From Paraspadella gotoi (Eukaryota; Animalia; Chaetognatha), in NCBI GenBank assembly GCA_051294375.1, contig CM119267.1:18392992-18456991 (forward strand): a stretch of 64,000 bases of DNA, written 5' to 3'. The notes under the pieces are model-generated. The model was given only the letters and a program-made list of their open reading frames with translations. It searched no databases and was not told the origin of the DNA. Shown here piece by piece: positions 34,593-64,000 of this stretch; position 1 is the stretch's first letter; every line of letters starts with the position of its first letter. The translations under genes were made by a program, and so were the position numbers.

Positions 34593-37500
34593 TTAAAGCC
34601 GTTCATCTCCAGGGCGCAGCTCGGGTTCTTCCGGAAAGGAAAGGTCTTGCAGGTCCTCCTTCGAAAGATCTCCTTCGGTCGTAACCTGATGGGTCAACAA
34701 ATTAAAGTACTATGAAATTTGTACAACCTATATAAAAATTATCCATTCATTTAATAAATAAGCTATCTTGCCCCTGACTTTGGACAGGCTTTGGTGGTTT
34801 AAGGCCTCCATCACTCTTACAAGATAATGACATAGCAGGACCCTGCAAGCTTTCAATCAAGACTGTCACAGTCTCGTTTATTCACTCCCAGAGTTCCTGG
34901 CTTCCCTATTAAATAACGATTATAAATATATGGGGGTCTCTTACTTGATCCGTTTCGGTGGCCATGAATGAATCGTCTTCTCCCTCCCCAGTTGTATTAG
35001 CGGCGGGATGGTTCAATGACGTTTCGGCCGTCTTCTTTGCGTCGTGCTCTATCAGTTTGACGCCCTCCTCCTCGTCCGCTGGTGCCGCTAGTATTAAAAT
35101 AAGAATATAGCTAAAACTATATGCAATAGGACGTAATTTTTTCCCCTTTTCTTTCAGTGCAATATGTAAGACTTCCTCTTCTTTCACCCTCACCTTCTCC
35201 CTTAGCGTTGACGCCCTTTTCGACGTCCATTTTTCCGCCGGTGGCTTTTCGCCTTAAAACCAAGGCTATGAATACGGCGACGGCGACGATGATGACGATG
35301 GCAATGGAAACGGCCCAAACCGTCGATGAAATATTGCTCAATGGGAAAGCGGAAGACTCGTCTGTGGTAGAACATCAGTTAATCAGGACATGGTCTAATA
35401 TTACTTATTTAAAAAGAGACGAGAGGGCCTTACCGTCTTCATCTCGCGGCTCGATCAGACTCAACTCGATCGCGTGAGTCTCGACTCCAATCCCGTTCTC
35501 CGCCACGCACTTGTACACGCCGGCATGAGCGCGGGACGCGTTCTTCACGTGATAAACGGCGGTGGTGGCGGAGACGCCTTCAGCTGGCGCGTCCAGGGCG
35601 GAGCCGTTTTCCCGAGATAAATTTAGGTGGGGAGAAAAGAACCAAGCGTAAGAGGGGCTGGGGTTCCCATGGAACGGGCACGCGAGCAGCAAATCGTTTC
35701 CGAGACTAATAAAAGTTAAGACGAGTTCGAAAGGTCAAAAGTTTTAAGTAATAAAACACAACATCGTTTCAATTTACCCAAACATAACGCGATTCGGGAC
35801 GACCTCCCGACGCGAGAGAAAACTGACGTGGACAGGAATTTCTGCAATAGGGGATTCGACTCCGGTCCAAGGATTTTTGGCCATGCAAGATATGGCCTTG
35901 TTGTTCATTTCCGCCACGGCGACGATGGCGCTTGAATTGACGATTTTTTCATCTGATACGACGAAGAATAAAGTCAATATGAGAAAGCAAAAGAGAGAAA
36001 AAGAAAGAAGCAACGCCGGTTAACCTTGAAAAGAATAAGTAATAACTGATTGGGGACGAGAGTTGACGGCCACGCACTCAACCCCAAAAGTCTGACCAGC
36101 TTCAACACGAATCTCTTCCTTGTTCGGTCGAACCGAGTCCGGTCCATGAGCCACGGGAATTTGAAATTCTTCGCTGAGATTCGCTGAGATAAGAATCAAA
36201 CATCGATTTTATAGTTGAAAATATTATACATATAACGAAATGGCTTTTTTCTCCTCACCCGCCTCGCATCGTACGACGGCGTCGGTCAACGCCGGCAGAG
36301 ACGAGGTGACAAGGGTAAATGCGACGACTTTCCCCTCACGCGTCAAGTTGGAAAGTAGACCGTCTGATTCTGAGTCGACGGTGATTTCCGTCGCGGGATT
36401 TCCTAAATCGTCAACGCCACAAGAAACTCGACGAGAATCGTCTCCCATGACAATATATTTGGGTGCGCCCTCAAGCTAATCAAAAAATAAATGAAAAAAA
36501 TTATTATTTTAATAGAAATATTAATCCCGGGGAATAACAGAAGACAACGCTGCCAAACAGATTCTCACTTTCAAAATCCTAGGCGCCCAAGTGACGCTGG
36601 CGAGATTAGATTCGCAGACGAGTCCGAGAGAAGGAAGTTGGCAAGCGACTCGAGTCGCGTTGTCGTCATTTCTCGAGAAAACCGGCTGAGATAAAAGACA
36701 AAAGTCGAATTTTGCGTCTCGAATAATAAATCATCAAGAAAAATCTAAAAAGACCTCGACAGCGGAGCCAATCAAAAAGTCGCCGTCGTCCGAGATTTTC
36801 GACCGCTGTTCCTCGTCTCCTTTTTTCATGAGGAAAAAACTTGGCAACCAACCGGCAGAGGGACCGAATTTGGCGACGCGACAGGAGGCGTTCGTAGGGG
36901 CGCCTTCCTCTACCGTCGTTAGCAGAGGGCATTCGAAAGAGGATCCGTTAAAGACGGAAACGGAAACGTCATTTCCGCCTGGAATCCACAAGAAAGAGAG
37001 GTACGTATAAAAGGTCAATTTTTTTTTTCTAACCGCAGTCTACGAAACCGAACTCGAGACAAGACCTTGATCGTCGCAGAAGTAATCTCCGGCTTGTTTC
37101 TCGGTGGCGGAGGCAAATGTATAAACGAATGTTTTTCCATTGTCCTCCACAGTGATGCTTCAAAAAAGAGAGATTAAATTGAAACTTAATTCGAAGAAAG
37201 TGATTCCTAGGATTTATTCGTCAGCAGTTTACGTTGGTCAATGGACAGGCCTACTTTAATTCTTTGGGCGCATCGGGTCTTCTTTTCTCCCCCTCGGCAA
37301 ACTGAACCGATTCAACGTTAGACTCGTAGTGTTTGAATTTCAAAAGTGGTGAAAAGGCTTTGGTATCCTTGAAAATCGTGGGGCAAGTTAACCGTAGCGG
37401 TTCACCTTGTGGTAAATATTGAAAAGTCAAGGGGTAAAAACCATACTAATTTGTTTCATTCCACAGGCAATAACCGTAATAACCCTCTAACACTTTCACG

Positions 37501-37618
37501 CTCTTTGCTCACCTTGCAATACTGAAACTGGTCTTGGGACTTTTCCAAACGATTTGGAAATAAGTAACATCGACAAAAACAGCAAAAGATAATAAGCTAA
37601 TGTCGACATCGCAAACAT
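34593..37618 (-). CDS. Type I membrane protein with immunoglobulin-like domains
   Basis: Signal peptide (MSTLAYYLLLFLSMLLISKSFG); Ig motifs (LACPFHGNPSPSYAWF..HAGVYKCVAENGIG); TM helix VWAVSIAIVIIVAVAVFIALVL-RRK; acidic cytoplasmic tail ending PGDERL*. Confidence 0.7.
34710..34909 (-). mobile_element. ~200-bp interspersed structured repeat, copy A, carrying a twister-like ribozyme
   Basis: Near-identical reverse-complement copy at 58655-58853; lies in the last intron (34686-34944) of the Ig-domain gene. Confidence 0.85.
34763..34827 (-). ncRNA. Twister-like ribozyme, type-P5 permutation, no P3, mini-P1
   Basis: UUAUCUUGU-AAGAGU-GA-UGG-AGGCCU-UAA-ACC-ACC-AAA-G-CCUG-U-CCA-AA-GU-CAGG-G-GCAAGAUAG. 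P5, P2 and P4 pair; T1 UGG:CCA; T2 ACC pairs with GU+G. Predicted cut U34801/A34800. Confidence 0.75.
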
Positions 37619-62688: not shown

Positions 62689-64000
62689 TCATTTCGGTTC
62701 ATCCGTTGATCTACAAATATAATTCAAAATAAAAAATCGTCTATTAGAACAAATTGACGTCATTTCGCCCTTACAAGCATGAAAAAAATTGAACTACGTA
62801 AAAATATATAGTCGGGCATTGCCTAGGTACACCCCGCCTATAAGCATGACTCTTTCAGTTGTGACCCGGTGGCTCATTGAGTAAAGCCATCAGCTCATGA
62901 CCACTAGGTACCGGGTTCAATCCCAACCTGGTACCTACCCTGCGGGAAGAGTGAGGACGGCCGTAAGCCGCCTTGAGGGCATGGCAAACCCTCAAGCCTG
63001 GTTCCAAGCCCAGGACCCGTTCCATGTCTGCTAGAGGGGGTTATAGAAGTTACGGATAGTCATCTTCTGCCCACTTAGCGCCTTATCCACAAATATATTT
63101 TTAAAGCTCTTTCTACTAATTATAGTAAATCATAGGCTTTAACATCAATATGGTTTATTTTTATTTGGTAATTGACTTACTCGTCAACGCCCAATTCGCC
63201 GCAATCGTTAATTACTATCGCTTTTGACGTCGTCCCGTTTTGGCAACCCATCTTTTCAAGTTCTCTCACGACTTCCATCCCGGTAACGACCTGCGAAGAA
63301 ATAAAAATGATCGATCCTTCTGTGTGAACGGTTTGTAAGGATTTTCTAACTTATGAAGCCACGTTTGTGAAGAATATAAAATGAAAAATTGTTAAACAAA
63401 TTTTGCAGATATCACAAATGGCGATTTACGATTTCTATACTCACTTGACCAAAAACAACGTGTTTTCCGTCTAGCCAAGGTGTTTTAGTGGTACAGATAA
63501 AAAATTGACTTCCATTAGTGTTGGGACCTGCGTTCGCCATGGACAAAGCTTTGAGGAAGGGGTTGGGGAAATATCATTATCTAACCAATTTTAAAAAATC
63601 GAGTTGTTCTTACCTCCCGGCCCAGTATGTTTTAAGATAAAGTTTTCATCATCAAAACGATTTCCATAGATGCTTTTACCCCCAGTTCCATTTCCTTTCG
63701 TAAAATCTCCTCCTTGTATCATAAATTGAGGAATAATTCGATGAAACTTGCTGCCCTTGTAACCAAAACCTGAGAAAAATATATTTTAATGGTTATTGTA
63801 CTATATCATACGACTGTAAAATCACTAAACGGTTATGACTCTTAATACCTTTTTCACCCGTACATAGCACACGAAAATTCTCTGCAGTAAGAGGAACGAT
63901 GTCCTTAAAAGCACAAAAATTAGAAGCAACATGATATATATATTATATATGCTATAATAGTATGAAATTAATTGTTACCTTTCTCAATTCAAACACAATG
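62689..64000 (-). CDS. Cyclophilin-type peptidyl-prolyl isomerase, 3' part; start lies beyond the right edge
   Basis: [82 protein letters not shown]. Ends either unspliced at TAA 63177 or, via donor GTAAGT at 63180, in an exon ending ESTDEPK* at 62689. Confidence 0.92.
62863..62934 (+). mobile_element. tRNA-derived head of a SINE-like element
   Basis: A-box-like TGGCTCATTGAG; B box GGTTCAATCCC at tRNA spacing; CTCATGA loop; imperfect acceptor and anticodon stems. Confidence 0.7.
62942..63020 (+). ncRNA. Twister-like ribozyme, type P5, mini-P1
   Basis: GCGGG-AAGAGU-GA-GGA-CGGCCG-UAA-GCC-GCC-UUGAGGG..CCCUCAA-G-CCUGG-U-UCC-AA-GC-CCAGG-A-CCCGU. T1 GGA:UCC; T2 intact. Predicted cut U62964/A62965. 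Confidence 0.8.

Follow-up and report, generated by a model that had tools for sequence, protein, structure and literature searches.

In twister ribozymes, a guanine acts as general base and an adenine as general acid (PMC6154101), and among described twisters type P5 (RF02684) comes nearest to the elements reported here. Outside this class, the closest systems are animal type I hammerheads, in which a palindromic helix III beside the cut site blocks monomers and enables dimers (PMC4209133; PMC7229834, on axolotl; PMC6765202). Here we analyze a 64,000-nucleotide (nt) window of the Paraspadella gotoi genome, a stretch of animal DNA with short introns. Protein searches gave no close relative among named hits, the best of which stand at about 79–84% for an NUBP1 exon and at 49% for HINFP. 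Five loci in it, named below by their position in kilobases (kb), follow the type-P5 strand order and belong to four repeat families: A (49.5 kb), B (34.8 and 58.7 kb), C (57.9 kb) and D (62.9 kb). Their sequences modestly favor the view that they are dimer-forming P5 twisters, each lodged centrally in its repeat, and that the four unrelated, high-copy carriers resemble short interspersed elements (SINEs).

These loci share with RF02684 the strand order, the GA and UAA segments, P2, P4 and two pseudoknots, and RF02684 is the best Rfam match of the 34.8- and 62.9-kb copies. They depart from it in P1, a closed hairpin of about 20 nt in the Rfam consensus and a palindrome of 6–8 nt here, in P2, which in three families has 3 bp and a bulged A, in a variable T1, and in scores below the Rfam cut-off. 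In the type-P5 order, P1 stands where the type I hammerhead has its helix III, and a short palindromic helix immediately before the cut site is likewise present in the dimeric hammerheads of newts, Penelope-like elements and animal non-LTR (long terminal repeat) retrozymes (PMC4209133, PMC7229834, bioRxiv 10.64898/2026.07.22.740005). Such retrozymes, which have been linked to Penelope-like elements (bioRxiv 10.64898/2026.07.22.740005), are also non-coding, high-copy host repeats of 170–400 nt; unlike them, the present elements carry a twister, and the copies seen are dispersed monomers with sharp ends. The SINE-like Sm-alpha elements of Schistosoma place a ribozyme behind an RNA polymerase III (Pol III)-type head in a short repeat (PMC6765202), but theirs is a hammerhead, whereas here an intact twister stands in mid-element and a tRNA-like head is found in only two of the four families. 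Natural reduced-P1 twisters on animal retroelements are represented by the Perere-3/RTE T-variants (PMC8501958, PMC7761336); these are of type P1 and truncated at the 5' end of the element, where the cut site marks the boundary and reverse transcriptase follows downstream, whereas ours are of type P5, internal and flanked by host intron, with no open reading frame. Additional twister permutations were reportedly sought unsuccessfully (PMC10085705), and no palindromic-P1, dimeric or SINE-borne type-P5 twister was found in a search of open-access papers and preprints.

Results

Helix pairs were counted by script at each locus, and all four families gave the layout P5–P2'–GA–T1'–P1–UAA–P2–RCC–(P3)–P4–L4–P4'–P5', with the open ends in P5. 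This agrees with an earlier note on this DNA, which had placed five P5-type loci in introns and whose coordinates hold. The first family B copy (34764..34826, minus strand) is intact and lacks P3; its catalytic G is 34812 and the predicted cut falls at U34801|A34800. P5 (7/7), P2 (3/3 plus a bulged A) and P4 (4/4) are fully paired, with T1 as UGG:CCA and T2 as AC:GU. Family A (49548..49628, plus strand; catalytic G 49561, predicted cut U49574|A49575) is likewise intact, with P5 6/6, P3 6/6 and T1 CCG:CGG; its P4 has only 3 bp (GGG/CCC), and its P2 pairs at three of four positions, with an A·C at the inner position beside the core and no bulge. In the intact family D copy (62942..63020, plus strand; catalytic G 62953, predicted cut U62964|A62965), P5 (5/5), P2 (3/3), P3 (7/7) and P4 (5/5) are complete, T1 is GGA:UCC and T2 is GC:GC.

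The remaining two copies are damaged. In family C (57907..57982, plus strand; catalytic G 57920, predicted cut U57931|A57932) every stem is perfect, yet T1 is broken (CGG:ACG), being disrupted by two private changes in L4 at 57963 and 57964. The second family B fold (58740..58799, plus strand) has suffered a 3-nt deletion near 58752–58754 that takes out the catalytic GA, and this copy is likely dead. The catalytic G and the A after the cut site are therefore present in four of the five copies, with GA gone at 58.7 kb; both pseudoknots are complete in three of the five, and at 57.9 kb they are complete in the family majority.

The earlier note had stressed helices that differ in sequence and stay paired, and this was seen for T1, T2, P2, P4 and P5 across the four families; its three T1 triplets, and AC:GU as T2 at 34.8 kb, were recounted as claimed. 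The signature that it gave for four copies, a 3-bp P2 with a bulged A next to a 6-nt P1, describes families B, C and D; family A has the A·C and an 8-nt P1. Five separate examples have to be reduced to four independent ones, the 34.8- and 58.7-kb copies being one family with 94% identity over 205 nt.

In all four families, the stretch that links T1' to UAA is self-complementary along its whole length. It reads AGGCCU in family B (34807–34802, minus strand; retained in the damaged copy at 58756–58761), UCCUAGGG with U–G ends in family A (8 nt; 49566–49573, plus strand), GGCGCU with G–U ends in family C (57925–57930, plus strand) and CGGCCG in family D (62958–62963, plus strand), the centers being GC (B and D), CG (C) and UA (A). 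Counting three independent cases, the chance of such self-complementarity is 2e-4 to 2e-3. The intramolecular P1 stem-loop characteristic of type P5 is absent: 1–2 bp could close at most, and in all four families this hairpin is less favorable than an open P1. The central pairs are impossible in a hairpin, yet they are complementary with three different centers. Full palindromes whose centers cannot pair inside a monomer point to a P1 helix that likely forms between two element copies. A strand-swapped dimer lies 11.7–16.3 kcal/mol below two monomers in all four families, of which the P1 duplex contributes 8.6–11.4 kcal/mol; these energies cover nested pairs only and leave pseudoknots and concentration outside the model. 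The minimal subclass of the earlier note, taken as monomers that keep a mere vestige of P1, is not supported in that form; the palindromes are complete in every family.

The number of folds was then set against chance. A full descriptor (T1 at least 2/3, T2, P2, P4 at least 3 and P5 at least 5 pairs) found 4 window loci versus 7 matches in 400 shuffles, a contrast that is optimistic, the descriptor having been fitted on the window loci; a self-complementary P1 occurred in 0 of those 7. A loose descriptor, weak on its own, gave, over 60 shuffles, 2 loci versus a mean of 0.28 per shuffle in its strict form and 5 loci versus 1.7 per shuffle in its relaxed form, two of the five being junk matches at 62212 and 49859. 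Against Rfam, the Twister-P5 model (RF02684, cut-off 37.6 bits) scored 25.8 bits at 34.8 kb and 16.3 bits at 62.9 kb, and the twister-P1 model (cut-off 67.2 bits) matched part of the 49.5-kb locus at 15.2 bits; the Rfam comparison of the 57.9-kb locus returned no twister match. Standard models could thus miss these loci, as had been anticipated, and folds scoring under such thresholds may be going unnoticed across many invertebrate genomes.

Carrier repeats were delimited with contigs from 4 of 11 listed sequencing runs, placed on two stretches of the window at 80% likeness. The repeat units are non-coding, measure 202–281 nt and reach 0.6–2 × 10^4 times the depth of their flanks in runs X1 and X4; contig depth over repeats is a summed value and no copy number, and we read it as thousands of copies, in which each of the four families apparently exists. 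Depth edges are sharp (A, 49425/6–49680/2; B, 3' end at 58852; C, 57800–58033; D, from 62809), and the flanks are heterogeneous, with an agreement of about 0.4. The ribozyme is all that the four families have in common, their sequences being otherwise unrelated, so depth and ends uphold the proposal that several different short high-copy elements are the carriers.

Family A (49426..49678, plus strand; about 253 nt) has sharp ends with a hairpin at each, and lies between candidate 6-bp target duplications, TAATGT (49420–49425 and 49679–49684; chance 0.077). Family B is represented by copies at 34710..34912 (minus strand) and 58651..58852 (plus strand), further copies reaching about 10 nt more 5', and by a lone 3'-terminal remnant of 29 nt (52916..52944, plus strand) that is 93% identical and amounts to a 5'-truncated copy. 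Family C (57800..58033, plus strand; 234 nt) consists of a 33-nt leader with a hairpin, a tRNA-like head, the ribozyme and a tail; the head (57833..57905, plus strand) resembles tRNA-Gly(CCC), has an acceptor stem of 7 bp together with motifs like the A and B boxes, and is called by ARAGORN at a lowered threshold only. Family D (62810..63090, plus strand; about 280 nt, 3' end approximate) has the same order with a 52-nt leader, and its head (62862..62934, plus strand) carries an A-box-like TGGCTCATTGAG, assigned by eye, and a B-box GGTTCAATCC; here too the ARAGORN call is weak and appears at the lowered threshold only. Candidate 8-bp target duplications, AAATATAT, flank this element (62802–62809 and 63091–63098; chance 0.011). 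The heads of families C and D end 2–8 nt before P5, and none is present in A or B. Trimming of the tRNA-like part in the manner of theta ribozymes was considered and rejected: the cut would fall 26–30 nt past the tRNA-like end. In the consensus of families A and B, the 5' flanks are TATA-rich. Inside the window no element copies stand in tandem, and the elements contain no hammerhead core; a search of the window for that core gave one match, in coding sequence.

In their 5' portions (49463–49547 and 58651–58735), families A and B fold into long hairpins, for which no Rfam family reaches threshold. Beside the family A copy, 49708–49800 shows zero depth in all four runs, which record filtering may explain. 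Just 5' of the family B remnant lies a 42-nt inverted repeat (52755–52904; 95% complementary, 66 nt apart), possibly an insertion resembling a miniature inverted-repeat transposable element.

Within families, the damage seen at individual loci is not shared. At 57963 and 57964 the family C majority has T and C (98–99% of X1 depth, among the 40 of 156 rows listed), which restores L4 as UCCG and a complete T1. In family B, 66 contigs have as an insertion the 3 nt that the 58.7-kb copy is missing, and 163 and 84 loose ends agree (X1). The family consensus forms would very probably cleave. In family A, X1 shows a variant depth of 5% or more at 11 of 123 sites in the 5' part, at none of the 73 ribozyme sites outside L3 and at 2 of the 7 in L3; the 5' part differs from the ribozyme outside L3 with p = 0.008 (Fisher test, private change at 49450 excluded), and the variants concentrate in the long-hairpin part (49463–49547). 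Central P1 bases of this family vary in X1 (T>G 1.6%, A>C 2.5%, and A>T at 49570 1.7%); T>G and A>C jointly would preserve the palindrome, if in phase.

All five loci are intronic, four of them antisense to the host gene and the 34.8-kb copy sense (p = 0.19). Run X9 contains spliced contigs as well as elements and is RNA by guess; its depth is unreliable for expression or cutting. The first family B copy lies in a 259-nt intron of an immunoglobulin-domain gene (34686–34944), delimited by GT..AG in the sequence only. Family A lies antisense in an intron of a citron/MRCK-like kinase gene (49340–49844), across which X9 contigs join. Two kinesin introns hold the family C copy (57760–58119) and the second family B copy (58551–59326), both antisense; spliced X9 contigs skip these introns, which have GT..AG on the minus strand. 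GT..AG signals and the two ends of a single X9 contig delimit the intron with the family D copy (62711–63180, antisense), which lies in a putatively cyclophilin-like host gene.

Outside this genome, the family signature matched nothing in viral or metagenome contigs, collections with little animal DNA, so that these blanks say little about animals. A canonical core with a P1 of 4–9 nt occurred at 7 loci in viral contigs, which by eye comprise two long-P1 type-P5, two type-P1, two belonging to an ambiguous tandem array, and one ambiguous; three further viral matches lacked L4. A 6-nt P1 pattern matched 166 loci (metagenome, 102; prokaryote, 54; viral, 10). Eight of these passed the P2 and P4 filters, and P1 was palindromic in 0 of the 8, again in contigs poor in animal DNA. 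A recurrent AT-rich group among the 6-nt-P1 matches reads as coding sequence. A phage or gut-metagenome twister tandem array has adjoining units that can be read as type P1, or as type P5 with the 6-nt linker GAACGT.

Discussion

In its boldest form, our reading is that the elements encode obligate domain-swapped "double twisters", gated by a palindromic P1 and convergent with the dimeric hammerheads. They would be carried by at least four SINE-like families, two of them tRNA-headed, and would process RNA to be mobilized by hammerhead-less Penelope elements of the Naiad type; the lone copies in introns, numbering tens of thousands, would remain silent. To this boldest form we assign a probability of about one in three. 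In the dimer model itself, two RNAs would pair over 6–8 bp at P1, where a single RNA would close 1–2 bp at most. Each active site would then combine the 5' half of one copy with the 3' half of the other, making P2, P5 and T1 intermolecular, and the predicted double twister would cleave both RNAs at U|AA. The chemistry is that of known twisters, in which G serves as general base and the A that follows the cut as general acid. The dimer step is proposed because of the palindromes and the hammerhead precedent, and dimer pairing probably matters for cleavage rate.

Pol III would transcribe the two tRNA-headed families, C and D. By analogy with hammerheads, tandem or abundant transcripts may be cut to unit length and possibly circularized, whereas lone intronic copies would be cut slowly, sparing the host pre-mRNA. 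A tandem or circular intermediate would account for a leader inherited upstream of a Pol III-type head. The most speculative step is reverse transcription of the element RNA by a Penelope-like enzyme, foremost Naiad, a possibility that we advance tentatively. Movement through RNA is favored by the candidate target duplications of 8 and 6 bp, the lone family B remnant, the tRNA-like heads of two families and the TATA-rich 5' flanks. Naiad elements have no hammerheads, a (TA)n target preference and tails of 30–40 bp (PMC8557442); the (TA)n bias resembles the TATA-rich flanks here, while partial tandems are not among the joints listed.

Several observations weigh against this proposal, and some of them would suit a monomeric mini-twister, in which each copy folds alone with P1 of 1–2 bp and a 4-nt loop, or open, and the palindromes are inherited or incidental. 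Type-P1 twisters tolerate loss of P1 at a near wild-type rate (PMC5408937), and about 1,900 natural twisters, in a study restricted to type P1, tolerate imperfections in P1 and P2 (PMC11662667); with P1 dispensable in that type, monomers may cut well. Of the joints listed (15 of 567 and 15 of 103), none is a high-depth head-to-tail joint such as tandem units would leave. AGGCCU and CGGCCG both contain GGCC and may be inherited, A>T at 49570 has no listed partner, and the central P1 variation of family A could also reflect a free loop. In that family the 3' tail varies no more than the ribozyme does (0 of 52 sites), so constraint may span the whole 3' half. The antisense position of four of the five copies is what one would see if sense copies were harmful (p = 0.19), yet the intact 34.8-kb copy sits sense in a 259-nt intron. 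The tolerance data, moreover, concern an open-ended P1 and not a short closed linker, and monomers leave four self-complementary P1 segments out of four, with three different centers, unexplained. We consider this alternative rather unlikely.

Other difficulties concern how the repeats move. A family-wide leader of 33 nt (C) and about 52 nt (D), which would not survive in a simple SINE, precedes the tRNA-like head, so that neither family begins at its tRNA-like region as a tRNA-derived SINE does; both element ends are sharp; and candidate target duplications accompany two of the five copies, the other three showing nothing above chance. Repeats moved as DNA, of the rolling-circle Helentron/DINE-1 kind, with twister and tRNA-like parts captured or acting on RNA fate only, would fit the retained leader, the sharp ends with nearby hairpins, the AT-rich sites, the very high depth and the subterminal inverted repeats of 9 + 7 bp in family C. 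HINE/DINE-1 elements, however, require subterminal repeats of 12–15 bp and a TT target without duplication (PMC4067079), whereas here the longest repeat is 9 bp, the sequence around the elements is rich in TA, and candidate duplications accompany two copies; four unrelated families would also each need to have captured and kept up an intact twister core. Such an origin seems improbable to us. More improbable still is that the loci are inactive relics or chance look-alikes. Every locus falls below the Rfam cut-offs, two of five copies are damaged, and minimum-energy monomer folds contain no twister core, which also speaks against the double twister; its absence there is expected of a folding program that cannot score pseudoknots. 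Relics or look-alikes would hardly be expected to keep T1, T2, P2, P4 and P5 paired through sequence change in four families and the core intact in family majorities, and only 7 descriptor matches arose in 400 shuffles.

If the dimer model is true, two unrelated ribozyme classes share one control device, a palindromic helix adjoining the site of cleavage. The model would also account for a genome's tolerance of intronic ribozymes in the tens of thousands, and could provide the ribozyme that Naiad elements lack. A concentration-gated twister would in addition be a useful engineering part.

Other features of the window

The kinesin intron with the second family B copy contains another repeat (59000–59330), whose depth of 10^3–10^5 comes in part from a poly(A) run at 59130–59175. 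An LTR retrotransposon unrelated to the ribozyme elements occupies 2127–6453, with 151-nt direct repeats that are 93% identical, a reverse transcriptase piece (PF00078) and broken frames. At 10273–11204, a 183-nt duplication flanks a 305-N assembly gap and is accompanied by a 22-nt tandem array. One X9 contig (61223–62710) starts in the last exon of the upstream gene, crosses 1.5 kb unspliced and continues into the spliced Arf-like gene, which reflects either read-through or an assembly join.

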